From Yuukianura sp. NJ FZ-2021 (lineage: Eukaryota), in assembly GCA_046563655.1 (NCBI GenBank), contig CM102289.1, forward strand, positions 3,038,001 through 3,102,000: 64,000 nucleotides of DNA. The letters run 5' to 3'. Under the pieces are notes generated by a model. The model worked only from the letters and a program-made list of their open reading frames with translations. It did not search any database and was not told the origin of the DNA. Below, in pieces: positions 1,554 through 23,109 of this stretch. Each line of letters begins with the position of its first letter. The first letter of the stretch is position 1. The translations under genes were made by a program, and so were the position numbers.

Positions 1554-3420
1554 TTACTTTTTCTTTCTAGTCATGTCAATTTTTGGTTTTGCTTTTGAAA
1601 TGAACTGCAAAATCGCTTTGAACAAAAGCAGCAAAGCTTTGTATAGAATGCAGATTATGACAACCAGAGTTGCTGAAAGGAAACCAATCACATCCAAAGA
1701 ATAGTACTGAAAAAAGTTCAAATCTCTGGCGGCTGAGCGTAAATGGTGTGCACCTAAGTAAAAGTGCAAAATGAACGTCAAACGTCGTCATTTTATACAC
1801 GCACAAAGAAATCGTACAACTGATGATAGTTTTCTACTGACCTTTGTGTCTTATTACGTATTCGGACCAAAACACTGCACGATCCAGAGGATGATTTGGT
1901 TGGTCCTGGAAAGTTTTTGAAACAGCCAACGCTCTTTCCTTGTAACTAAAATGAGAAACGTTGCCACATAAATTGTACAATTTTTCTCTTCATGTAGCCG
2001 CGCTTAAATTTTACCGGGAGTCTGTTAAAATACTGTTGATAGCTTCCAACAACTTCTCCTCGGAAATTGTATTAAAATCCAGAACGAGTCCATAGCCAGC
2101 TTGCTTAGCCAGTTCCATGTTAATTGTTTGGTCAGCAAACATCGGAAAGCCAATGATAGGAACACCATGGTAAGCTGCCTCCGCTGTACTTCCGAAACCA
2201 CCATGAGTGATGAACGCCCTGCGAAGAAACATAGAAGGTCATTGACCTCTGTCCGACTGGTTGGACCTAAGGTCATTGACCTCACCTGATTTTAGGGTGA
2301 CCCAGAACATCCTGTTGGGGAACCCACTTGCTCAGTTTCACATTTGGCGGCAAATCATCCATCTCCTCAGTTTCCCACTTCCAAAGCACTTTCTGCTTCA
2401 ATTTCGAAAAAGCCCGGTTCAAAATTTTTCGTTTTTCTTCCGGCATTGTGGATCCCTTGAGTAGAGATCCCATGCTAAATAAAATGAAACCATCTTCCCC
2501 TGAACTGGATACAAAATCTTCCAACTCCTAAAAACAATTTTTTAAGAATGACAAATTTTAATTTAAAATTTAAACAAAAAAATTTTAAATCGGACTTTTG
2601 GAAGTGCTTTTGCGGGTCGACAGTGCATTCCACCAACTTCCACAATGTCGGGCAGGAACGGACGAATTGAACCAATACTAAAATGGCTATTGGAAAATAT
2701 CATGCTCGTGTTTTTGTACAGATCACTAGGAGATGGAACGTCATGTCCAAGTTTTTCCTTATAAACTTTTTCAATCTCCGAAAACATAATGCAATGCATG
2801 AATCCTCTGATGAAAATTTCAACGACAAAGTTCACAATTCGTTCGTAAAAATTCATGTGATTGGTGTATCCCGTCATAGCATGCGGAACAAAAGACGAAG
2901 GCGATGGAGTTCCAAGCATTGACGAAACTGCTGTAATGACGCTGAGTGGACTGATGAGAATCACATTTGTCTTGAAAGTCCAGGCAAACGCTAGAGAACA
3001 CTCGTTTACGTTGGCTGGAACAAAAATGAGGTCAAAGGTCATCGACCTCAAAGCCTTAACTTCGGTCGAATCCAAAGCCGCATTGCATTGTCTTACGGCC
3101 GCCATCAAAACGTTGAATGGACTTATGTTTCCTCCTTTGGATTTTACTTCAAACATGTTTGGTATCATGGCTGACATGCCGTCACCATCGCCAACCTGAA
3201 TTTCTCTTAAATTTTTGATTATTTTTGTACTTGGAACTGGTGTTACCACTGTGACCTCGTGACCTCTGGCAGCAAGTGCTTCTAGTAAAGGGTCATATGT
3301 AATTTTGTGACTCCGGGAGCACGTAAAGGCCACACAAAGAATTTTTGCGCCTGACGCAGTATGGAGACAATTCGGTACAAGAACAAACAGCACAAGCAAA
3401 TATTTTATTTTAATATTCAT
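1554..3420 (-). CDS. UDP-glycosyltransferase (UGT), ER membrane type, 5 coding exons; paralog 1
   Basis: ATG at 3420 (MNIKIKYLL, signal peptide); catalytic His in 'SRSHK'; UGT signature [45 protein letters not shown]-terminal TM helix and Lys-rich ER-retention tail; GT-AG introns at 2528-2595, 2219-2285 and two more near 1945-2015 and 1755-1841. Confidence 0.95.
2236..2282. promoter_or_regulatory. Two perfect IR1 nuclear-receptor palindromes (AGGTCAtTGACCT) in the 67-bp intron 2 of UGT paralog 1
   Basis: AGGTCATTGACCT at 2236-2248 and 2270-2282. IR1 is the idealised EcR/USP (and FXR/RXR) element. Function is not shown. Confidence 0.55.
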
Positions 3421-3857
3421 CCTCCAAAATTTTGTTTGAAAAAATTGTGAATTGAAATCAGTAGCAGAAAAACACTGTATCTGAAACCAAAAAAAAGGTC
3501 GAAAATGGCAGAACTTCGCACAACTAATAAAAATTAATCCTCTATACAATTGGCTCAATTGAAGTGGGTTGAAATTACTACATTATACTGTTTAGAAGCT
3601 TCAAGCCTTTGAAACCAAATTGGCATAAAAGAATAAACTTAGGGGTATGACAATTTTTTTTTTACTATCGGATTAGCCCTATGATGCAGCCTCTATGAAC
3701 TGTAAACTATATATGTGCGTTACAATGTCAGAAGAATTGAATTGAAGAAGAATTGACCATCTCAAATTCCGGTGCGAGGATTGTAATAAATAACACTTTT
3801 TAAAGCAATTTTTCATATAACGGCTGTAGTGTGTAGGCTAAGCGCATCTTTCTGAAA

Positions 3858-4060
3858 TGTTATACATGTATATTATACACATTTAGTATATTTTTCTATT
3901 ATACATGTATATTATACACATTTAGTATATTTTTTTATTATACATGTATATTATACACATCTATTATATTCATTTATTATGCACGTATATTATTCAGATC
4001 TAGTATATTTTTATATTATGCATGTATATTATACACATCTACTACATTTTTTATTATACA
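3858..4060. repeat. AT-rich minisatellite, about 39-40 bp unit, about 5 progressively degenerate copies
   Basis: Repeated ttatacatgtatattatacacatttagtatatttttt, containing the palindrome tatacatgtata. Confidence 0.85.
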
Positions 4061-4638
4061 TATTGTGTCTAAATTGCATCTAATTGCATTTGTGTTGGAT
4101 TACTCTACAAGAGTTACAGTAAATCCAAAATAAAATTCTAATCGTATTATTATTCTAATCTTATAACTTATAATAAAATAATTTACGTATGCCGAAAGGT
4201 TTTACACTTGGATTCTACTCATACCACGATCGATTTGGAGTGACACTTGTCTAATGCCGAAATCATGAATGACAAAAACCGTCTCAGCAGTTGCTCTGTA
4301 CCTGCTTTCGCGAAGAAATTAACGAACTCAAAGCCAAGTATTTGAATTCTTAAGAGTCTCGTATACAACTTCTAAGTTCATAGAGGTTAGTATAATATTA
4401 CTAGTACTATAATAGTAATTACTATTATATTACTCTTATATAACCTATATAATTACTAGTAATATATTACTCTTATATAACTAGTTACAACATGATTGCC
4501 GAAAAGGGAGGTAAAAATATAGAACCAAAAACGGTAGAAGGACTCACGTAAAATTAAAGTTGAACTTACACTTACAAGATGTTATAATTTTTAACAATAA
4601 AAGTGGCGCATAACTACTGTTTCTTCAAAATAGTTTGA

Positions 4639-6023
4639 TCAGTATTTCAGTGCCATTAGGAGTGAAATCAAGTTATCGACAATGGTTTCATTTACTGTGA
4701 CTATCATTCCACGATCAACATAGTTAAGCGGACCACATTTAACAGAAAATGCTCTCAATGGTTTTGCCAACAGAATGTCCGCCTTCCCTTTGGAATGTTT
4801 CTGAAGCAAAGAGATGCAATTGGTTGAAGTGGTAACAAGATCTGCAGCTTCTGCTACAAAGAAACTTATGACAATGTGAACACCGCCAGCTATACCAAAA
4901 AGAACAAAGCCATAGAGTGAACTGATTAATCTAAAGAAAATGGCATAACTGATTGAACTGGATGCAACTCCTGCTACAACGCACCACCCAAATATGCTCT
5001 CCAAAAAGTCATTCCAGAGCGGCATTAACACACTGACTGCGTTGTAGCGCCGAACTTCAACTAAAAAATAATTTGGTTTACGCAAGCGCTTTTCCAGTCG
5101 CGAATGAGAAAACCAGCATGTTTTCAAGTTCTTTGCCAACAAAATAAGACTTATATACTGCAAATGCTTGTGAAACGTAAGGTAGGCGACGACCACCAAG
5201 TTACCAAATAATGCGCAAGTGAGGCAAGTCTCGATGTAACTCAAGGTTGTATTTGGGAATACCATGGTTAGCAATATGTGCACGAGCGCTTCCATGTCTT
5301 CAAAGTACGCCCACGTTGAACATATTGGGAATCCAATTACTAGTATCACAAAAGCCTGATACAAAAGTTTCATCCACCGGAAGTTGCCAATCATTTTATT
5401 TCGAAATACCAGCATCCCTACTCACAGAACCAATTATCGGGTGTTCGAAAAGTTAGTTCCATCTTTTTTCTCCCTGTGTTACTTCTCCATCTCATCTCTC
5501 ATCTCCCACCGTTGAGTTTTTGCAGCTTACGAGTTTTGTGCAGAAAAAGATGGAACTAACTTTTCTAACACCCGATATATTCTGAACCTTGTAATTGATA
5601 AACATTTTTCCTTTTGTTTTAAATTTGCGTTTGACTTTAATTACCTGCATTTGATTCCAAATATGCCAGAATAGTATTGAGCAGTTGTTGCCACACTTTC
5701 CTGTTCCAAATTCCATTTAAATCCACAACAACATTATGAGACAGGACGAAGGCCCCAGCTAATATTTGAAATGTTAGTAGTGGATTCAAATTATTTGAAT
5801 AGCTAACAAAAGCCAGCATAAGGGATGTCGGTGTTTGGAGTAAGTCGTAAATAAGAACAGCGTAGGAGAGTACACGATAGTGTTTTGTCTCATCCAAACC
5901 GAAGGCGGCCTTGGATGGGTTCCATTTTAATGGATTCTGGTACATCACATGGCCTCTTCGTAAAACCATCAACAAAAACTCCAAGGATGGCAACATCTTT
6001 ATATTAAAACCTTTAACAGACAT
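4639..6023 (-). CDS. Divergent multi-pass chemoreceptor-like protein (GR/OR 7TM ion-channel superfamily), 2 exons, about 385 aa
   Basis: Phase-1 intron 5418-5644 (GCA G|gtaa...tag|GG ATG) joins the two ORFs in frame. About 7 hydrophobic segments; C-terminus 'RAFSVKCGPLNYVDRGMIVTVNETIVDNLISLL' fits the GR/OR-type G-x-x-x-I/V-D...TM7 pattern. Confidence 0.7.
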
Positions 6024-6764
6024 GTTGAAGAGTGTATTCCCAGGATGCTAAAATGAAAAAGACTGAAAAGAATTACCAAAAAACGAAAAAATAAACTTAT
6101 CAGTTAAAGTTTTGGTTTCATAAGCATTAAATAAAAGCATTACTTAAGGAAAAGTATGGAAATGGTATAAACTTGTAAAGTAGAATGTTTTTCAACCTAA
6201 AATTCGTTAATAATAGAACTTGAGGTGCTCTTTAGAGTACTTTCTAAAATACTCAACTTTTAGTGCTTTTAGCAGAGGCGTAATGGGTAGGTATAAGTCA
6301 ATATTCAATATTCAACTGCGAAGTCAACATGCCTACCAACTGAAACTCAATTTCAACACAATTTTTCCATTTTGATTCGATTTAGGAAATTCTAGGCAGC
6401 GTCCTATTATTTAGCAAACATTTTAAACATTTAGCTACCGTGAAAAGCTTTTATTTTGGAAAACAACTTTCACCTGCCGAAGTCAGGTTGAGTAATTATT
6501 GATAAAGTAGAGTTGATAATTTAAAACTTTTAAAAACTTGTTTTCACTGCTTCAATTTTTCCAAAACAATATGTTTCCGTTTTAGTTTTCACTGTGTCAA
6601 AATTAAACAAAAAGTTGTATGATGAAACACAGTTTTAAACTCCCGTGAGAATCACGATGCTGTAAAATTAAAATAAAAGTAGCAAAATTGAAAAAGCAAA
6701 TAAACTAACAGAAAAACAAATTTTTAACACAAATATGATTTGTCTTTGAAATCAAATCCATTGT

Positions 6765-8739
6765 TTATTTCTTCTTTTTTCTTAGGTCAGTTTGTTTTGC
6801 CTTTGAAAAAGTGAACCCTAGAATTGTTTTACACAAATACTTGATGATTCTGTAGATAGTCCAGAGTACTACAATCACCGTTGTCAAAATGAAGCAAATC
6901 ACGTCGATGGAATGGTACTGGAAAAAGTTTAAATCTCCGGCGGCTGAACGCAAATGTCGTGCACCTAAACGGTGAAATTTAAGTCGAAAGTTATTGTTTT
7001 TGTAAAAAATTCTTAAACTATTAAATAACCAATAGCTAATTCGTTAATTTTTTTTATAGTTCTATGGTAGTTCACCTTCGTGTCTTATGACGTATTCGGA
7101 CCAATAAACTGCACGATCCAGAGGATGATTTGGTTGGTCCTGGAAAATTTTTGAAACAGCCAACGCTCTTTCCTTGTAACTAAAATGAAAAAGGTTTCCA
7201 CATAAATCGTGCTTTGTCGATGTGCAGGTTATTAACCTTACATTAATCTTAACCTAATTTCGTTAGTAACTTAATTTATACCAATTTATAGTTTTTAATT
7301 CTTAATTCACAATAATTTATATTTGTTTTCACTTTACCTCGAGTCAGTTAAAATACTGTTGATAGCTTCCAACAAACTTTCTTCGGAAATTGTATTGAAA
7401 TCTAGAACGAGTCCATAGCCAGCTTGTTTAGCCAGTTCCATGTTAATTGTTTGGTCGGCAAACATCGGGAGACCAATGACCGGAACTCCATGGTACACTG
7501 CTTCCGTTGTACTTCCAAATCCACCATGAGTAATAAACGCCCTATAAAAACATAGAAGGTCATTGACCTCTGTACTACTGGTTGGAAAGGTAATTGACCT
7601 CACCTGATTTTGGGGTGACCCAGGACATCCTGCTGTGGAACCCACTTGCTCAGTTTAACATTTGGCGGCAAATCGTCCATCTCCTCAGTTTCCCACTTCC
7701 AGAGCACGTTCTGCTTCAATTTCGAAAATACGCGGGTTAAAATTTTCCGTTTTTCTTCTGGCATTGTGGATCCCTTGAGAACAGATCCCATACTGAATAA
7801 AATCAATCCATCCTTTCCTGAACTGGACACAAAATCTTCCAAGTCCTAAAAGAGCATTTAAAATTTTTTCACAGAATTTCAAAAAAAAAAATAATAAATA
7901 AATTGCAAGCCGACCTTTGGAAGTGGTTTAGCAGCTCGGCAGTGCATTCCACCCACTTCTACAATGTCAGGTAGGAACGGCCGAACGGAGGCAATGCTAA
8001 AATGGCTATTTGAAAATATCATGCTTGTGTCACGGTAAAGGTCACCGGGAGATGGAACGTCATGACCCAGCTTTTCCCGGTAAACTTTCTCAATTGCAGG
8101 GAACATAACGACCTGCAAGACTCCTGTGTACATGGTATCCGCAATAAGGTTTATCATTCGTTCGTAAAAAGTCATGCGCTCAGTGTATCCCGTCAAGAAA
8201 TTGGGAACGAAGGATGTAGGCGATGGACTTCCGTACATTCCCGAAACCGCTGCAGGGACGCTAAGCGGACTGATGAGAATCACACTCGATTTGAACGTCC
8301 AAGCAAATGCTAAAGAGCATTCGTTCATATTGGCGGGAACAAAGATAAGGTCATAGGTATTTGCCATCAGAGCTTTGATTTCAGGCAAATCCAGAGTCGC
8401 GTTACACTGATCTACCGCCTCAGTTATAAACTGTAATGGATTTATGTTTCCTCCTTTGGCTTTGACTTCGAACATATTTGGCATTGAGGCTGTCATGGCT
8501 TCTACATCACCAACTTGAATTTCCCGCAAGTTCTTGATTGTTTTTGTACTAGGAATTGGTGATACTACTGTGACCTCGTGACCTCTAGCGGCCAGTGCTT
8601 CTAGTAAAGGGTCATACGTAATTTTGTGACTCTTAAGGGAAGTGAAAGCCACGGAAAGAATTTTTGCACTCAATCCATTCTGAGGACAACTGGAAACCAG
8701 AACGCAAAACACCAAAAAATGTTTTATTTTAACGTTCAT
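6765..8739 (-). CDS. UDP-glycosyltransferase (UGT), 5 coding exons; paralog 2
   Basis: Same exon structure as 1554-3420; 'KSHK', UGT signature [46 protein letters not shown] helix and RKKKK tail. Confidence 0.95.
7557..7600. promoter_or_regulatory. IR1 pair in the 62-bp intron 2 (7542-7603) of UGT paralog 2
   Basis: Perfect AGGTCATTGACCT at 7557-7569 and one-mismatch AGGTAATTGACCT at 7588-7600, at the positions orthologous to paralog 1. Confidence 0.55.
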
Positions 8740-9784
8740 TTTGCTAAACTTTCAGAAAAATTGATACTTTCTAATACGGGCAGAAAACAGAAACTGCTGA
8801 AACAAATCAACGTCATGTGAACATAGCTAAACTTGAACAAATCACGCACAAAGACAATCTGACTCTCTATCTACCTAAATCACTCGACTGAAGTGTTTTC
8901 AAGTTACTTTATCAATCGGCCAAAACAGAATTAAACGAAATATGGACTTCGGAGTATTCCAACTTTCTAACATCGCATGTGTTCTGGGATGTGACCTCAT
9001 GCAACTGTAGCTTTGAAAGAACATAAAATGTATCAAAATTTTAAGTTTTCCGCTAAATGATTGGAATGCTGCGCCAGTTCTTAGCTAAACTAGCATTGAA
9101 GAAAACCAAAAAATAAAACTGAAGTGAAATTGAAACTCTCAAAGTATGATGACCTCGAATTCTATTAACTATTTTACAATATTTTCCAAGGTTAACACTG
9201 ATTGATGGAAATTAAAGTGTCTTTTTTTGGGTCTTCGGTGGGACATTGGTCATCAATTTTAACAGAAACACTTGGATAAAAAATCACACATTCGGTCTTT
9301 GTTTCTGTTCTGGTCTCACAACATGCTATTTTTTACAGTTTACGATGCTCAATCTCATATCTCAATTGAACTTCTATTTGCATCGAATTGTATTGGTTTC
9401 AATACTTTCTACACAACTTGTAATTTGAATTTTTTTTTAAACTGATGTCTACAGTTTTATGTAATGCTGAAACCTCCAAACAATATGCAATTAGTATGCC
9501 CCCAGTAATGTGGACTGGTTTTAAGCGTTACACAGTTTGCAAATAAACTTGACTCTTTTTTGCCTAATTTGTAAGAGGATGAAAGCAGTAGATGAATTCA
9601 TACACTTGACATTGAAATGTAAAAAAACACGTCAAAATAGTGTTAAATGGGATTGACCTTGAAAAAATATAATTTACGTATTGGTTGGTAACTCAAAAGA
9701 TAAATAAAATTGTCATTTCTCTCGCAGCAAAGTTAGCAGAGAAGCTCTAGTATCAAGGCAAGAGTGGTAGCGTTCCATGCAATC

Positions 9785-11685
9785 ATGATCGACATATTAG
9801 AAATCAGTTTTTATGTGATTTCTTCGCTTGTGATTTTATTAATTTTCGGTGCGGTAGCCATTGCACTTTACGCTCGTTGGTATCGCGGTACATTAGAACA
9901 AACTGGAGTTACTGTCATCAAACCGCATTGGTTTCTTGGAAGCAATTTCGATGCGCACAATCAAATTCAGCCTCATGTTGACTTGGAAAGAATGCAAAAA
10001 CATGGACACGTTTACGGGGTAGTGTGAGATTATGTTTTTCAATCCTAAATTTTGTGATGAATGTTTATTTTTTAGTTTGATGTAATTTTTTTTAGGTATA
10101 CGATGGACGTCAACCAACAATTTTCATCTCAGATGCAAAACTTATGAAAAAAATTCAGTCGACGGATTTTGATTATTTTAGAAGCCACAGAACGTTTCTA
10201 ATCGAGCATCCAATTTTCTCAGAACTTCTCGACTTTCTCGACGGTAAGATTTTAAGCACACAAATTGAAAACAAGTTGAGAATATTTACAAACAAATTGG
10301 AAAACACATTTTTTCAAAATTGAATCTAAATCGAAATTTTTTTCTTTACAATTTCCTGTAACAATTTCAGATGAGAAATGGAAAGAGGTCCGATCTGTCT
10401 TAACTCCGCAGTTTACAACTGGAAAGATCAAACAAATGTGTGACACAATTTCGGATATTTCCTCAGATTACGTCAAAGCATTGAAACAAGACATGATGAA
10501 AACCGGCCAGGATAGAATAAAAATTGATTTCAGAAGGTAAAATTATAAAATTAATTCTTATAACAAAACAAAGTATTTAAAAAAGTGAAAGAAATCGTTT
10601 TAAACCTACTTTCCAATTGTATATCAGATATTGCCCGCCTTTAGTTTTGGAAATTATCGGCAAAGTTTTTTGTGGTATCAACATCGAAAATGCACGCGAC
10701 CCTAACAACATTTTCATAAATAATATGAAACAGTGCTTGGGTGGAGACGGAGACCTTTCAATGGACTGGACTTTCACTTTAGGAAGTCAGAAGTCTAATT
10801 AATTCAAATCGGATTCAACTTTTTAGTAATTTAGAGTCAACTTTAAATTGAGTTCTGATTCACTTTATAGGTGCCGTTCCACTGATTACACAATTTTTTC
10901 CAGTATTTCCGCCTGGTGCTATGGAGGTTTTTGCTAAAGAAATCAGAAGTATTTTGGAAGCTCGAGACAAAGCCAAAGTGGAGTCTCAGGATATGGTCAA
11001 CACTTTGCTCGAAATGACCAAAAAAGCTAAAACGGACGAAAATTACAAACGATTGGGAATCACCAGTAACACAGCAGTGGCTCAAGCATTTGAATTTTTT
11101 ATTGCAAGTTACGAAGCAGTTAGAGCCATTTTAAGTTATCTCATCTACTACCTCGCTACACAACCGGAAATACAAGAACGAGTGCGAATGGAAATCGAAG
11201 AGGCAATGAAAAATCGAAAAAGTCAAAAAGTCACGTACGAAACTGTTTCCGAAATGCCGTTCTTGACAGCATGTCTCATGGAAACTATGCGACTACAACC
11301 GTCTTTCTTTAGACCAGATCGAAGATGTACTAAAGATTGGGAACACAATGGAATCAAAATCAAGAAAGACATGATAGTCATATTTCCACTGTATGCAATT
11401 CACCGTGATCCAGCATCCTATGATGACCCGGAGACCTTCGATCCAGATAGATTCATGCCCGGAAGAAAAGAGAAACTGGATCCTTACACTTTTGGAACGT
11501 TTGGGAATGGCCCTAGAGCTTGTATTGGACAAAAATTTAGTTACCAAATGCTTAAAATCATTGTAGTCCAGTATATGCAGAGTTTCATTTTTGAACAAAG
11601 GAAGGACACTGAATTGAAATATGTCAAGGGAAACCCAATTTTCATACAGACAACTCCAATTTATGTTGATTTTGTTAAACGATGA
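9785..11685 (+). CDS. Cytochrome P450, CYP3 clan, 5 exons, atypical I-helix
   Basis: N-terminal TM anchor; 'YGVYDGRQPTIFISD'; C-helix 'WKEVRSVLTPQFTTGKIKQM'; ExxR 'ETMR'; PERF-like 'PDRF'; heme loop FGNGPRACIG; I-helix 'AQAFEFFIASYEAV'. Confidence 0.93.
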
Positions 11686-12195
11686 TATGCAACATAAAAT
11701 TCCGTAGCCATATAGCAACACAGTTTTTGAAACAAAAATATGAATGTTTTGTCCGGCTTGGTTTAAAAAGATATTAATAAAATTACGTAATAAAATATTA
11801 CCCAATATTACTAACAACAGTAAACATAAATATGATATGCTTACTGTTGTCTGTATGCCCATAGCGTAATATTTTTGAAGAGTTTTTATTTACAAGACGC
11901 TTCAAATATTTTGTTCAATTCAGATTTATCTTTTCTAAGAGTTGTTTAATTTTTCCCAATGTCATGATAAGATTTCTATTTAGTTCTTCAGAAGGCAATA
12001 CACATCTCACAAGGTCATATTTCATGCGTGACCTTGTAAGATCACCAAAAAGCATTTAGATTTCCTCAGTCGTGTGTACAAGATACGCCGTTCTACAGAA
12101 AACTAACATAAACAATAAATCGAGCTCCACTTGTTCCTCCTAACCACTCCAACCAGCCAGTCGCTTAAGTTTCACCAAATTCCGAATTTTGAAAA

Positions 12196-13866
12196 ATGCT
12201 TCTAGAATTCCTCCTATTTTTAACAATTATACTCGTAGTAACCTATTTTTCACGAAACAAAATATATCATTTGCCTCCAGGTCCAATTGGATTTCCGTTT
12301 TTTGGGTACTTGCCAAAGTCTTTAGGTCGAAATGCCTACGAACGTTTTGACGTTTGGGCGAAGCAATATGGTGACATATATCGGCTGCGAATTGGTGGTC
12401 GTATGTACTTTGTACTAAACAACTACGAAATCATCCGAGAAGCTTATGTCCATGATGGACAAGGTCAAAATTTCTTGTCAAGACCTCAAGACTTCAACAT
12501 TTTTGGATGTGCCTTCGAATTTCGACCAATGCCGTTCAAAAATGGGCCGGAATGGGCAATTCACCGGAAAATGTTCAACTCGCTACTGCGTCGAAGTGAT
12601 GCGAGAACGGAAGCATTTATACATCAATCTGCTGAAGACATTGTTCGTCGAATTCGAGAATTGTCCACCGACGGTCCCGTCGATGTTTACAAGATCATTG
12701 CTGAGGGGGTCGTGAATATCGTAAGTAAATTAATAATAAATATTAATACAATTTAATTATATATTAATTAATTGTGGTTTTAGGTGAGTACGTTGGGCCT
12801 CGGACGACGACTTATGGACACGGATCCAGAACTTGCAAAACAAATTCTGGATGACACGAGAAAAATTTTTACAAATGCGCCGCGTGGAGATGGAATGCTG
12901 GCTGGCTGGATTGTCCAGTTGCTTACAAATCCATTTACTAAAAAACGACGCAACATCAATGAAATTACGAAAAGGGAGTTCGACATTATGGAAAAATTTG
13001 TGCGGGAACATGAAGCTGATTTTGACAGTTCAAATATCCGAGACTACATCGACGTTTGTCTCAACGAAAGAACCAAATCTTCAGACAATGATTGGCTATC
13101 TACAAGAAATATTGCATCGAACGTCCTAGTGTTGTTTGTCTCTGGAGTTGATACGACCACCACCACAATGTACTTTGCCCTGTTTCTATTGGCTAAGCAT
13201 CTCGACGTCCAAGAAAAATGTATCGAAGAGCTCAATAGTGTCATTGGACAAGATGTTCCTAATGTTAAGGCCAGTGACAGATCCAGACTACCATACATGA
13301 CAGCAGTACTTAACGAAATCAACCGATATGCCGTTGTGGGACCATTACCCCAACCTCGTGAAAATGTGAACAGGACGACGCTGGGCGGATATGACATTCC
13401 CGCTGGCTCCCATTTTATAACAAACTTGTGGTCGGCTTCGCGTGATGGAAAGTATTTTGCAAATCCACATCAGTTTGATCCAAACAATTTTTTCGGCAAA
13501 GATATTCCTCGAGACGTTGCATCCCTGGTTTTCTCGGCAGGTAAAATTTCTAAATTTCATTACTGATTTGACTAATTTTAAGTCGCATGATTCTTTTTTT
13601 TTAAATTCTAGAATCATAATTTTTGTTTTTTTCAAAATTACGTTAATTTTGAATCAGTTTTAACCAAAACTTTTTTTTTTTCCACAGGGAAGAGAGCATG
13701 TCCAGGAGAAAGTTTTGCACAAATGGAAGTTTTTATTTTCATTGCTCGAATTCTACAAAATTTTAAAGTTCTACCAGTTCCAGGCGAAGAATTGATTGAA
13801 ACTCTAGTGCCAGGATTCACGCGGACATTGGCACCTTTCAAACTTATGTTCAAATCGCGTCGCTAA
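12196..13866 (+). CDS. Cytochrome P450, CYP2 clan, 3 exons
   Basis: 'LPPGPIGFPFFG' Pro-rich hinge; WxxxR 'WAIHRK'; I-helix 'SGVDTT'; 'EINR'; heme loop FSAG|KRACPG split by intron 13541-13688; intron 1 at 12721-12783; stop TAA at 13864-13866. Confidence 0.93.
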
Positions 13867-14006
13867 ATTGTTAATACTAAAAGAATAAGGTTAAGCCGCG
13901 CTGCTAATTCTGACAAAATTGCTTCCTTTGATCTGGGAATGGAAGTGTCTACTTTCACAAACGACTACAAATACAACAATTTACTTTTGTAAATTTTAGC
14001 AAATTC

Positions 14007-14381
14007 TTAGCGATTCTGCACCCTGAAATCCTCTGAAGAGCAGTACACTGATGCAATTTCGCAGAATGCTCGTGTAGAATCTTCAGACACAGCGTTCATG
14101 GTAGAGCCGTATCGCTTTCCCAGCAGCGAATGACTGTCAACTTGAAAAAAAAATTATATGGTTTTAAATAAACTCCGAAATAATTTTTTCAGTATACATT
14201 TTTCTGAAATTTTTTTTCTGTATGAAGGCTCACCAAAATTTCTTTTTCCAAAAATGCCGCCATTGCGTGGTGGTAACTTTCCTTTCTTATTGACAACACG
14301 TCCAGCACATTCCGATGTCAAAATGTGCATTGCGAGAAGCGAAAGTATGAGACAAGCAACTTTCATATGAACACTAGCCAT
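14007..14381 (-). CDS. SIFamide-family neuropeptide precursor (divergent), 2 exons
   Basis: Spliced through intron 14141-14233: MASVHMKVACLILSLLAMHILTSECA-GRVVNKKGKLPPRNGGIF-GKR-NFVDSHSLL-GKR-YGSTMNAVSEDSTRAFCEIASVYCSSEDFRVQNR*. The PPxNGxIF-GKR core and the C-terminal CEIASxxC motif are typical of SIFamide precursors. Confidence 0.88.
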
Positions 14382-14899
14382 TTTGTAGCGATGCAAAATT
14401 TTGTGAAAAAATGGATTCGTGGATTTGCGGGATTTTCAAGAGTACATGCAAGTAACAAATTAAGGACGACGTTGGACAAAACGTTTGCTTTTATATCGTT
14501 GGAAATTTGAAGTTATTGCGAACCAAGAAATTGAATTTTTTGTTCTCTTATTACGTATAGAGAACCATTAAAAATGAATTTTCAGAAGCAAAAGTTCTGA
14601 TACGTTTGTCAAACTTTTTAAGTCCAACTTTTTGCAAATGAATGTGTGAATCGTGTAATCGGCGTCATGAACAAGTTTGTACTAACTACGATCAGATACT
14701 TTTTTGCCAAAGTAAAAATAAACAGTTGTTATTGGATTTTAGGATATTTCCAACACATTCGTGACGGTCATAATTTAATACCAAAATTATATCTGTTCTT
14801 ACACAATTCCAAATGAAGTGGATTTTTGGAACATACAAGAGTTCCAGAAAAGTTGGACAGAAATATCAGCGAAGGAGATCTGCTTGACTGCAATTAAAA

Positions 14900-16693
14900 C
14901 TAGCAGCTTTTCAAAAGTTCTAAAACTTGTAGCGTCTCCTCGTCGCCTTCGCCGTTAGCTTCTTTCCTTTCGTCGTAGATTTCTTGAAGAAGCTTCTTGG
15001 CGTCCTTTACTTTCCCTTGTCCTTTCAAAGATGTTCCCAACTTCAAGCCGCTGAAAAACGAAGGAAATGCTAGGAATTGTTCAGTACAATTTCAGTTCGA
15101 TGTTGTGCGTGCTAAACGTTACCATTCTAACGTCTCTTGGTCATCTTTTCCCAAAACACGTTTCCTAGCTTTGTAGACATCCTGAAATATTTTGGAAGCC
15201 TCGTTGTAGCGTTTGCCCAGAAAATGAATCCGTCCCATTTCGTAGTTTGTGTCGATTGTGTCTGGATCATCTTCTCCCATCAGCTGCTTCCGTCCAGTGT
15301 GGATTTTCTTGAGGAGAGCTAAGGCCTCACTGTACTTCTCCAGGCTTATCATTACACAAGCCATTTCGTGACCCTAGATTAAACGTTTAATGGTAAGCAA
15401 TGCTTGTAATTTCCTTTTAAGTTAGACCTTGAGGAAAACTTACTGACTCCAGGGTATCCTCTTCCTGGAACCCCAATGTTTTTTTACGCTTCTGAAACGC
15501 TTCTTCGAATATCTTCAGTGCTTCTTCAAACTTTTCTTGTTCTGATAATAAGCAGCCAATTTCGTGTAGAGTTTCCAACGTATCAGAATCATCGTCTCCT
15601 AAGACTTTTCTCCTTAAATTCAGAACGTCGTCGTACATTTTGGATGCATCGTCGTACTTTCCCATTCCTGCCATCACTCCTGCTAGCTCGTGCATTGTCT
15701 CGAGTGTTCTGAAAGAAACCAAAGCGAAAAATTACAAATTGGCTGAATATTATGATGGTGATGTTTGAAGTTACGCTGGGTCTTCTTTTCCAAGTACTTT
15801 CTGGCGCCCATCCAAAACTTTGTAGTACATCTCAAGTGCTTCATCTTGTCTGTCCAGGGAGTCTAAGTTACCTGGAGAAACAGAACACAAGTTATGAAGT
15901 TTACAACGAATATTAACACATAGCTGGATCAAATTGGGCTTGATTGATTGTATGCTCTTCATACTAGCTAGTTCATGTCCCGTTTCAAGTGTTTCGGCAG
16001 CATCTTCGCCAAGAATTTTTTGCCGGGCTTTGTAGACTCTTGAATAAACCTTATGGGCTTCTTTCTTCTTCCCAGCGTCATCCAAGGCCGAAGCCAGTTC
16101 ATGTAAGGTCAGCAAGGTATTCACGTCATGCTTCCCAAGAATCTTTCGACGAGATTCGTAGACTTCATCAAACAGGTTGATTGCCAAGTCGTACTTCTGC
16201 TGGTTGGCTCGTACCGCTGCCATGTCATGCTTCGTCTGTAACGTATCCGGGTGATCTGCAAACATTGTTATCTTTAGCGTTGCGCAATGATAATCTATTT
16301 CTAATACTAATCTATTTTTTAACCATCGCCGAGGACACGCTTCCTTCCTTGAAAGACTTCGCTATAGAGCTTGAAGGCTTCGACATACTTCTCATCAGCA
16401 TCCAAAGCCGTTGCCATCTTGTTCTTGGCTTCCAATGTATCAGCGTGGTCTGGACCAAGACTGGATTTCCTTCCTTCGAAAACAATTGAAAATTTCTTGA
16501 AAGCTTCTGCAAATTTGCAGTCATCAAATAATTCATTTCCTTCCTCATATCCGGCACGGAGTTTACTCCTACTCCTTGACCTTGACCGTTGTTGACCTTG
16601 ATTGACATCCTTTGTCACACCGCACTCAACGTCAGGTCCCTCTTGGACAAATTCGGAATCTTTGGCGTCTCCTCCCGCGTACTCCTGCTCCAT
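14900..16693 (-). CDS. TPR-repeat protein (42-aa kinesin-light-chain / TPR_10-12 type), about 6 exons
   Basis: Repeated 'R.K.LG.DHPDTL.T.HE(L/M)A' units, about 10 copies; short GT-AG introns; ends LELLKSC* at 14900. Confidence 0.85.
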
Positions 16694-22540: not shown

Positions 22541-23109
22541 TTAGCAGTCGAGACACTCCCAAGTGACAGATCCATCCCTGAATCCTGACCGATCAAATGT
22601 GTTGGCCTCTAAATCAATAAGGTAGCCACTTGGTTCGGCGTTGTCGGTACAGCAGCCACCACAATCAGAGTCACCACAAGTGTCGCACACGACTGCGTCA
22701 ATACTTTTCCCGTTTTGCCAAATCCGAATATTTTTATTGATGAATTTGTTTTGGTCTCCGTGTGTTGAGAAGAGAGCCACAATATTGTTGTTGATTACCC
22801 ACTCATGGGATTTGGATCCACAGTAGGCAAATTGTCCTTCCCAGCGACATGCAGAGTAGTCCTCACATTCAGTGTTGCCTGGACATTGTTCATGCTCAGC
22901 ATCCGTGTACGGAGGGCTGATATTGCTTTCGCAGCACGGCGAGTAGGAACAGTAATGGGTTAATTGACCTAATTCACATTGGGAAATTGTATGTAAAACT
23001 TTTTACATTTTAACTAATTTTACAATTCTAATTTTAGTCAAAACTTACCGTTGTAGGCTGTAGACAAGCCAACAACGCCCAAAACCAAAAGTAGAGCAAG
23101 ACGTGCCAT
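22541..23109 (-). CDS. Secreted Cys-rich protein with a probable double-psi beta-barrel (RlpA/expansin/kiwellin-like) fold, 2 exons, about 160 aa
   Basis: Signal exon MARLALLLVLGVVGLSTAYN|G joined by a phase-1 GT-AG intron to QLTHYCSYSPCC...NIVALF...IRIWQNGKSIDAVVCDTCGDSDCGGCC...GYLIDLEANTF...SVTWECLDC*. 'V.DTC...C...IDL...F' is the DPBB pattern. Confidence 0.7.

Follow-up and report, generated by a model that had tools for sequence, protein, structure and literature searches.

SIFamide is usually cited among the best-conserved neuropeptides of arthropods, and the clear departures on record so far, SMYamide and IMFamide, arose after gene duplication. Signalling of the SIFamide type is regarded as orthologous to the neuropeptide-FF-type signalling of vertebrates (PMC5818035), and two Cys residues placed six residues apart are a striking feature common to SIFamide and IMFamide precursors (PMC4926255). 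SIFamide itself is expressed in a few large neurons of the brain. A gene related to these precursors was examined at positions 14007-14381, on the minus strand, of a 64-kb stretch of contig CM102289.1 from Yuukianura sp. NJ FZ-2021 (hereafter the window, meaning the whole 64,000 nt analysed). On the evidence of its gene structure, its family features, its synteny with a recognised SIFamide gene and the recent constancy of its peptide-coding part, the locus is very probably an intact gene with two exons, a member of the arthropod family of SIFamide precursors, which has descended in place from a gene with the canonical PPFNGSIF core and whose bioactive peptide has diverged. The features of the gene are as follows.

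14234..14381, minus strand: coding exon 1, 148 nt, encoding in turn the signal peptide, the SIFamide-like peptide with its G-K-R, and N-F, and ending with one base of a split codon.
14307..14381, minus strand: predicted signal peptide, residues 1-25, from hydropathy; by the -3/-1 rule, cleavage would follow C25 or G27.
14241..14306, minus strand: peptide region AGRVVNKKGKLPPRNGGIF with its G-K-R amidation/cleavage signal, residues 26-47, from translation, alignments and the pattern scan.
14141..14233, minus strand: phase-1 intron, 93 nt, 77% A+T, GTGAGC...TTTTTTTTCAAG.
14007..14140, minus strand: coding exon 2, encoding the remainder of a second predicted peptide, a second G-K-R, a C-terminal peptide with two Cys residues, and TAA.
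14112..14120, minus strand: second G-K-R, residues 57-59, which would free and amidate a 9-residue peptide spanning the splice junction.
14040..14063, minus strand: Cys-x6-Cys tail motif CEIASVYC (C76...C83) within exon 2.
14488..14495, minus strand: TATA-like box TATAAAAG, read from the sequence and ending 106 nt 5' of the ATG; a putative promoter element.

The coding sequence (CDS), joined by coordinates in a script, is 282 nt long on the minus strand (93 codons and a stop) and has zero internal stop codons. The ATG lies at 14381-14379 in the start context ACAAAATGG, and exon 1 translates as MASVHMKVACLILSLLAMHILTSECAGRVVNKKGKLPPRNGGIFGKRNF, followed by one base of the split codon. The intron donor reads G/GTGAGC, with its GT at 14233-14232, two codons past the GKR, and the 3' end of the intron consists of a T-run and CAAG. 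The split codon G/TT encodes Val, after which exon 2 reads DSHSLLGKRYGSTMNAVSEDSTRAFCEIASVYCSSEDFRVQNR as far as the TAA stop at 14009-14007. Two other gene models were rejected. With an acceptor at 14205-14204, the intron would be 30 nt long and the tail short and devoid of Cys, and unspliced read-through would give a 75-residue product without the Cys pair, though the GIF-amide peptide would still be encoded.

The N-terminus of the precursor is hydrophobic, with a mean Kyte-Doolittle hydropathy (15-residue windows) of ~1.5-2.0 across about residues 1-23 and values below 0 past residue 21. A single copy of the peptide is found directly behind the predicted signal peptide, and G45-K46-R47, which follows the peptide, forms a predicted amidation and convertase site. 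The precursor contains the basic pairs KK32-33, KR46-47 and KR58-59, and Cys residues at positions 10, 25, 76 and 83, of which only C76 and C83, six residues apart in the tail, are not part of the signal region. Translation and scripted joining reproduced all of the coordinates, the exon boundary and the peptide sequences of the initial annotation, which had been made from the letters of the DNA, and the second G-K-R, on which its second predicted amidated peptide depends, is present in the translation of exon 2. For the N-terminus the agreement was partial: a signal peptide is present, but the start proposed for the mature peptide at G27 needs cleavage after A26, which leaves Glu at -3, and cleavage after C25 or G27 fits the simple -3/-1 rule better.

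The main new result is the synteny of the gene with a metagenome locus, L045. The loci used for comparison were obtained by scanning metagenome contigs for the degenerate pattern P-x-N-G-x-I-F-G-K-R, with the canonical Phe and Ser positions left free; the scan gave at least 111 stretches, all 111 of which were translated, and the counts below refer to these listed stretches. When the 519 open reading frames (ORFs) of the window were run against them by tblastn, the P450 gene beside the peptide gene found a match only in L045, which was also the best match of the peptide ORF, in the same convergent orientation. The neighbour that serves as anchor in the window is the following.

12193..13866, plus strand: P450 gene (synteny anchor), with Pfam p450 matches on three ORF pieces.

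The stop codon of this P450 gene is 141 nt from that of the peptide gene, and the two genes are therefore convergent (tail-to-tail). The 3 kb of L045 contain 3' exons of a P450 gene at 3-903 on the plus strand and, ~350 nt beyond on the opposite strand, a two-exon SIFamide gene. The window and L045 P450 products are 60% identical by BLASTP (125/208 aa, E 2e-101), and 42% identical in the last exon. The SIFamide gene of L045 has its ATG at 1631 in a start context, ACAAAATGG, identical to that of the window gene, and encodes the core NRKPPFNGSIF followed by G-K-R-N-F; the canonical PPFNGSIF is kept, and the usual SIFamide Tyr is absent (...GNRKPP...). Its donor, G/GTGAGC, is found at the identical N-F-G position, the intron is ~100 nt long, the tail motif reads CEVAATYC, and the octamer TATAAAAG is present at 1730-1737, ending 98 nt upstream of the ATG. 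The window gene hence occupies a position homologous, one gene deep, to that of a recognised SIFamide gene. As the same P450-flanked position holds a canonical-core gene in a related organism, the window gene is an in-place descendant, and the change in its peptide dates after the split from the relative with the canonical core. This finding does not support, as stated, the proposal in the initial annotation that the gene is a paralog.

Exon 1 of the window and that of L045 are 41% identical at the protein level (20/49, E 1e-12), with one 3-residue gap at G-K-L of the window peptide, located between the basic pair and Pro-Pro. The DNA alignment of the two loci includes a 9-nt gap matching G-K-L as well as the shared start context. 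A MAFFT protein alignment places no gap at G-K-L and shows instead 5 changes in the 11 peptide residues. In both alignments, the window differs from L045 at the canonical Phe (Arg in the window), at the canonical Ser (Gly) and in the N-terminal half of the peptide. In the tail, MAFFT pairs S-L-L-G-K-R-Y-G-S of the window with G-S-L-G-Y-G-S-S of L045, so that K-R appears as a two-residue insertion, and L045 has no K-R at the position of the second G-K-R. An insertion step of this kind is tentatively suggested by the alignment. As the second G-K-R is missing from L045, the closest of the listed relatives, the extra predicted amidated peptide would be specific to the lineage of the window.

Membership in the SIFamide family was further assessed by comparison with the other listed loci, 25 of which carry SIFamide-type genes (~15 distinct groups), judged by a hydrophobic leader upstream of a basic-Pro-rich core. 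The remaining 86 of the 111 are unrelated ORFs, and many of these belong to a single repeat that has P-[IT]-N-G-x-I-F-G-K. The repeat is present in several metagenomes (e.g. in L005, L008, L016, L022, L023, L028-L030, L038 and L041), its ORF contains P-[IT]-N-G-x-I-F-G-K-[RS], and much of the spurious matching to the SIFamide pattern is due to it. Separately, genes encoding ...K[KL]PFNGSIF and ...APPMNGSIF co-occur in two metagenomes (L040 with L071, and L009 with L094); the tetranucleotide correlation of L040 and L071 is r = 0.70, and the pair may represent SIFamide paralogs of another organism.

The window gene and 14 metagenome SIFamide genes were aligned, and in each of them the peptide comes straight after the signal peptide and is terminated by G-K-R. 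P38, N40, G41, I43, F44, G45, K46 and R47 are invariant in the 15 sequences, but these columns were set by the search pattern, and their agreement is by construction because the loci were picked with a pattern that the window also fits. A phase-1 G/GT donor 1-16 codons past the GKR was recognised by eye in 17 of the 25 SIFamide-type loci, and the window gene likewise has a phase-1 intron shortly after its G-K-R, a family feature recognised from these loci and not from the literature. No donor was seen near the GKR in L009/L040/L082, L010, L071/L094 and L108, and L100 is intronless, reads straight into the tail and resembles a spliced, cDNA-like form of the L002 type.

Downstream of the core, L002, L017, L045, L051 and L100 have a CE[IVL]AxxxC tail, and the six-sequence alignment of the tails shows no variation at C, E, A and C. 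The motif C[EDQ][IVLM][AS]xxxC has one match among the 128,000 codon positions of the window, all six frames included, which falls within predicted exon 2, and 6 matches per 422,058 codon positions in the listed loci, 5 of them downstream of SIFamide cores and 1 a stray in L074. It was not found in the other SIFamide-type loci within the available DNA, which in several extends <500 nt downstream, nor in some loci with >1 kb downstream, e.g. L027, L047, L049, L061 and L079. For the core, the degenerate DNA pattern for P-x-N-G-x-I-F-G-K-R has a single match in the 64-kb window, at 14242-14270 on the minus strand, and the same pattern matched in 0 of 100 dinucleotide-preserving shuffles of the window. 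A looser six-frame scan of the window for SIFamide-like cores revealed nothing beyond this gene.

Architecture, intron phase and the Cys-x6-Cys tail therefore all match metagenome SIFamide genes, in accordance with the family assignment made in the initial annotation. Its description of SIFamide as nearly invariant was somewhat overstated, since the Phe and Ser positions vary among the ~15 listed gene groups: the former is Leu in three (L003, L010 and L106) and Met in one, and the latter is Gly in one (L010). The metagenome loci thus display more natural variation at these two positions than the literature on model organisms suggests.

Searches of protein and RNA databases returned no relative. 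A word-index homology search with exon 1 and the read-through product, among proteins of 41-132 aa, gave no candidate; an exhaustive phmmer search of 1.84 billion representatives with exon 1 gave 0 hits at E up to 0.001; Pfam assigned 0 families to the two exon translations, and Rfam gave 0 matches on the window. In the Protein Atlas, exon 1 had no match at or above 0.9, the best being a prolactin-releasing peptide cluster (0.88) and a 74-aa arthropod cluster (0.87), which serve as leads only. Empty searches are expected because the precursor has 93 residues and only a ~10-residue conserved part.

The peptide itself departs from the canonical one. P-R-N-G-G-I-F of the window keeps 5 of the 7 residues of P-F-N-G-S-I-F, and the block x-Y-[RK]-K-P-P is not intact, there being no Tyr and G-K-L separating K-K from P-P. 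As the core is not P-F-N-G-S-I-F, the window peptide is a variant and not SIFamide by name. Nor is it an SMYamide or IMFamide, its C-terminus being G-I-F-amide and not S/A-M-Y-amide or I-M-F-amide.

Expression, processing, amidation and the receptor of the window gene are inferred, the processing steps from standard prohormone biochemistry. Signal peptidase would cut after about residue 25-27 and a prohormone convertase after KR46-47 and KR58-59; a carboxypeptidase would then trim the basic residues, and peptidylglycine amidating monooxygenase would turn the exposed Gly into a C-terminal amide. The predicted products are a ~17-19-residue ...KLPPRNGGIF-amide, or an 11-mer if KK32-33 were cut too, a 9-residue ...SLL-amide peptide encoded across the splice site, and a C-terminal peptide in which a C76-C83 disulfide would close a loop. 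KK32-33 aligns with the internal basic pair of canonical SIFamide, which there precedes Pro. According to a survey of insect cleavage sites by Veenstra, K-K is said to be seldom used, and on this account the long form of the GIF-amide peptide is favoured. By homology with SIFamide, the peptide would most likely act as a neuromodulator via a SIFamide-type G protein-coupled receptor related to neuropeptide-FF receptors.

Recent variation at the locus was examined in contigs of four DNA runs, aligned to 13400-15000 at 80% likeness. Three of the runs (X1, X2 and X3) are from one sample, and X4 is a run labelled as another organism. Outside the CDS, the variant contigs of X2, X3 and X4 are several percent different from the window, with, for example, 17-21 differences per ~210-250 nt upstream of 14286. 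The stretch 14229-14315, which corresponds to residues 23-49 and includes the entire peptide, the G-K-R and the donor, is identical to the window in all four of the listed pieces that cover it, namely X4 record 26 (0 differences), X3 record 18 (0), X1 record 1 and X2 record 9; the 4 differences of the last are all intronic (14212, 14215, 14222 and 14228). In the signal peptide, differences were seen at 14377 (A2G), 14348 (I12L), and 14349 and 14331 (both synonymous). In exon 2, that at 14115 is synonymous and falls in the Lys of the second G-K-R, and that at 14080 gives D70G. The intron differs at 14212, 14215, 14222 and 14228 and by a 2-nt deletion at 14145. The constancy of 14229-14315 is a modest sign of purifying selection on the peptide, and not proof of it. 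It was also observed that X2 and X3 each have two contig versions of 13400-15000 (e.g. 0 versus 17 differences over 14301-14515), which points to divergent haplotypes or pooled individuals, and that X1, from the same sample, is near-identical to the window.

Several points weigh against an intact, in-place descendant with a working peptide. The synteny is one gene deep, and the P450 and SIFamide genes could have been copied jointly by segmental duplication. The comparison loci were selected by a pattern that fits the window itself, and the regular expression for the tail motif was composed for this analysis; as the database searches gave no relative, the gene is assigned to the family by short motifs, by its architecture and by a single syntenic contig. 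In the tail, the K-R insertion is seen in the MAFFT alignment only, BLASTP having left the region unaligned and the DNA alignment being without it. As 2 of the 7 canonical C-terminal residues are changed and the Y-R-K-P-P block is interrupted, it is not certain that the peptide would act on a SIFamide receptor. The splicing model was read from DNA, no RNA run being found among the sequencing runs that contain the stretch. Among the contigs, the differences listed above are a part of the total, 98 substitutions and 44 indels existing besides, depth is <5 in some of the variant contigs, and exons as a rule vary less than flanks.

If the gene is accepted as a member of the family descended in place, it is either the sole SIFamide-family gene of its genome or one of two or more, and the evidence is about evenly balanced between these. 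The first possibility, which has nearly an even chance of being correct, is that it is the only SIFamide gene of the lineage, having drifted or adapted together with a co-evolving receptor, so that the ...GIF-amide peptide is the 'SIFamide' of this organism. Positional homology with a canonical-core gene argues for this, as do the lack of a tandem copy in the window and the constancy of the peptide-coding stretch in the listed pieces, one of which comes from the run labelled as another organism. Other single loci vary likewise (Phe to Leu in L003, L010 and L106, and Ser to Gly in L010), and Diplura have a substituted single-copy peptide ending in SIYa (PMC4770511). However, the C-terminus is elsewhere described as strongly conserved, and the large changes recorded so far concern duplicates (PMC4237046, PMC4926255, 10.1101/2020.09.17.302331), and a charge-adding Phe-to-Arg change together with a 3-residue insertion in a lone ligand would demand a matching change in the receptor. 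The fuller proposal, that the only SIFamide-family gene was remodelled in place, implying a co-evolved receptor, and also gained a new amidated peptide via the second G-K-R, is possible but somewhat doubtful.

The second possibility, for which the case is plausible yet falls just short of probable, is that the gene is an extra, neofunctionalised paralog, with a separate canonical SIFamide gene elsewhere and possibly a dedicated receptor. In the cases already known, the peptide diverged strongly after duplication (Veenstra 2014, PMC4237046; Veenstra 2020, 10.1101/2020.09.17.302331), SMYamide of Polyneoptera and IMFamide of Lepidoptera being duplicates (PMC4237046, PMC4926255), and a few non-pterygote hexapods have 2-3 SIFa precursors (Derst et al., PMC4770511). 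The syntenic gene of L045 is already without the usual Tyr, and the metagenome from which it comes also has L002, which is fully canonical, and a third gene, L073; all of these could be paralogs of one organism. On the other hand, L002, L045 and L073 may represent three species. The tetranucleotide correlation of L002 and L045 is 0.48, pairs from other metagenomes are equally high (L061-L045, 0.47; L048-L045, 0.49), and chunks of the window correlate with one another at 0.47 +/- 0.12. A second SIFamide-like motif was found neither in the 64-kb window nor in the 3 kb of L045, and, as a canonical-core gene stands beside the corresponding P450 in L045, any duplication must predate the split from that relative.

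Decay of the gene, in which constraint on the peptide has been lost (e.g. after loss of the receptor) and the product is pseudogene-bound or no longer processed as predicted, is improbable. Canonical genes are best conserved in the peptide, and here the peptide is no better conserved relative to L045 than the remaining precursor, with 3 substitutions and a 3-residue insertion, or 5 of 11 residues changed, at ~41% identity overall; the lack of an RNA run among those containing the stretch would also be compatible with decay. Yet the open frame and its start context, the two splice sites, the two G-K-R sites and the pair of Cys residues in the tail are all intact, 14229-14315 shows no differences in the listed pieces while the flanking signal-peptide and intron sequences vary, and the variant in the second G-K-R leaves the encoded residue unchanged. 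Finally, although AT-rich DNA is rich in short ORFs and the searches for database homologues were empty, a chance ORF that resembles a neuropeptide precursor by accident is very improbable and is effectively refuted by the core pattern (0/100 shuffles), the window-unique tail motif that sits exactly in a spliceable exon, the conserved position and phase of the intron, and the synteny with L045.

The DNA of the window is arthropod-like, with 34-39% G+C, and the P450 anchor is one of several genes of detoxification type at lower coordinates than the peptide gene. The others are listed below.

2563-3582 and 7879-8751, minus strand: two UDP-glycosyltransferase genes, from the ORF list and Pfam.
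10852-11685, plus strand: CYP3-like P450 gene, from the ORF list and Pfam, placed among arthropod clusters in the Atlas.

Together with the anchor, these make 2563-13866 a run of detoxification-type genes (two UDP-glycosyltransferases and two P450s). Beyond the peptide gene, genes for TPR, GMC-oxidoreductase, M1-aminopeptidase and carbonic-anhydrase proteins were recognised. The carbonic anhydrase was most similar to metagenome proteins, at 44-48% identity, its best named match being a shrimp protein at 34%, and a homology search with the P450 returned none; by these comparisons the DNA is placed at the level of Arthropoda. A 153-residue Cys-rich open frame at 22541-23002 on the minus strand had no Pfam match at E up to 1; its product may resemble a double-psi beta-barrel or expansin-like secreted protein. 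From 45750 to the end of the window (64000), a 189-bp satellite is present in 96.6 copies with a 98% match and contains long spurious open frames.

The significance of the diverged SIFamide-family gene depends in part on its copy number. As a sole copy it would offer a defined ligand-receptor pair for the study of co-evolution and, should remodelling of the only gene be true, a natural example of ligand-receptor co-evolution together with the birth of a neuropeptide. Were a canonical copy present at another place in the genome, the gene would be a third independent type of SIFamide paralog. Either way, the second G-K-R illustrates that a tiny change can create a candidate new amidated peptide in an existing precursor. 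In the article texts searched, no relevant publication was found for the GIF-amide or PPRNGG-type peptide strings of the window, although the SIFa precursors tabulated in the supplement to PMC4770511 may already include this sequence; other strings taken from the peptides of the window and of the loci were likewise absent from the texts, as was a publication giving the EC50 of truncated SIFamide on the SIFamide receptor.

Among the named systems, the canonical SIFamide gene (xYRKPPFNGSIF-amide) is like the window gene in having a signal peptide followed by one copy of the peptide, the P-x-N-G-x-I-F core, G-K-R, a phase-1 intron just past the GKR and the CE[IVL]AxxxC tail, and in occupying the homologous position in a relative. 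Unlike it, the window peptide has Arg for Phe and Gly for Ser, no Tyr, the G-K-L insert and an extended N-terminus, and the tail carries the second G-K-R. The dipluran SIFa, NNVRKLPFNGSIYa, is also a substituted peptide and is treated as the ordinary single-copy gene of its lineage (PMC4770511), but its core has a conservative Phe-to-Tyr change only, whereas the window has two core changes, one of them to a charged residue, plus an insertion.

SMYamide of Polyneoptera is, like the window gene, SIFamide-derived, with a peptide less conserved than SIFamide (10.1101/2020.09.17.302331; PMC4237046), but ends in S/A-M-Y-amide where the window peptide ends in G-I-F-amide. IMFamide of Lepidoptera (NYKNAPMNGIMF-amide as printed, PMC4926255) has the Phe position changed to Met, which is Arg in the window, and, like the window gene, retains the N-G core and the Cys-x6-Cys tail (PMC4926255). 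It ends in I-M-F-amide, identical across Lepidoptera, and coexists with SIFamide (PMC4926255), whereas the window peptide retains I-F-amide but has the Ser altered.

A G-I-F-amide end is also found at the metagenome locus L010, which at 424-576 on the minus strand of an AT-rich contig (27% G+C) encodes an independent ...KKPPLNGGIF-GKR. As in the window, a G-I-F-amide end stands in a peptide directly behind the signal peptide, but the basic pair adjoins Pro-Pro in L010, the Phe position is Leu in L010 and Arg in the window, and the L010 tail differs from that of the window, no Cys pair being traced within the 459 nt at hand. As the GIF of L010 is independent of that in the window, the G-I-F-amide end arose at least twice.

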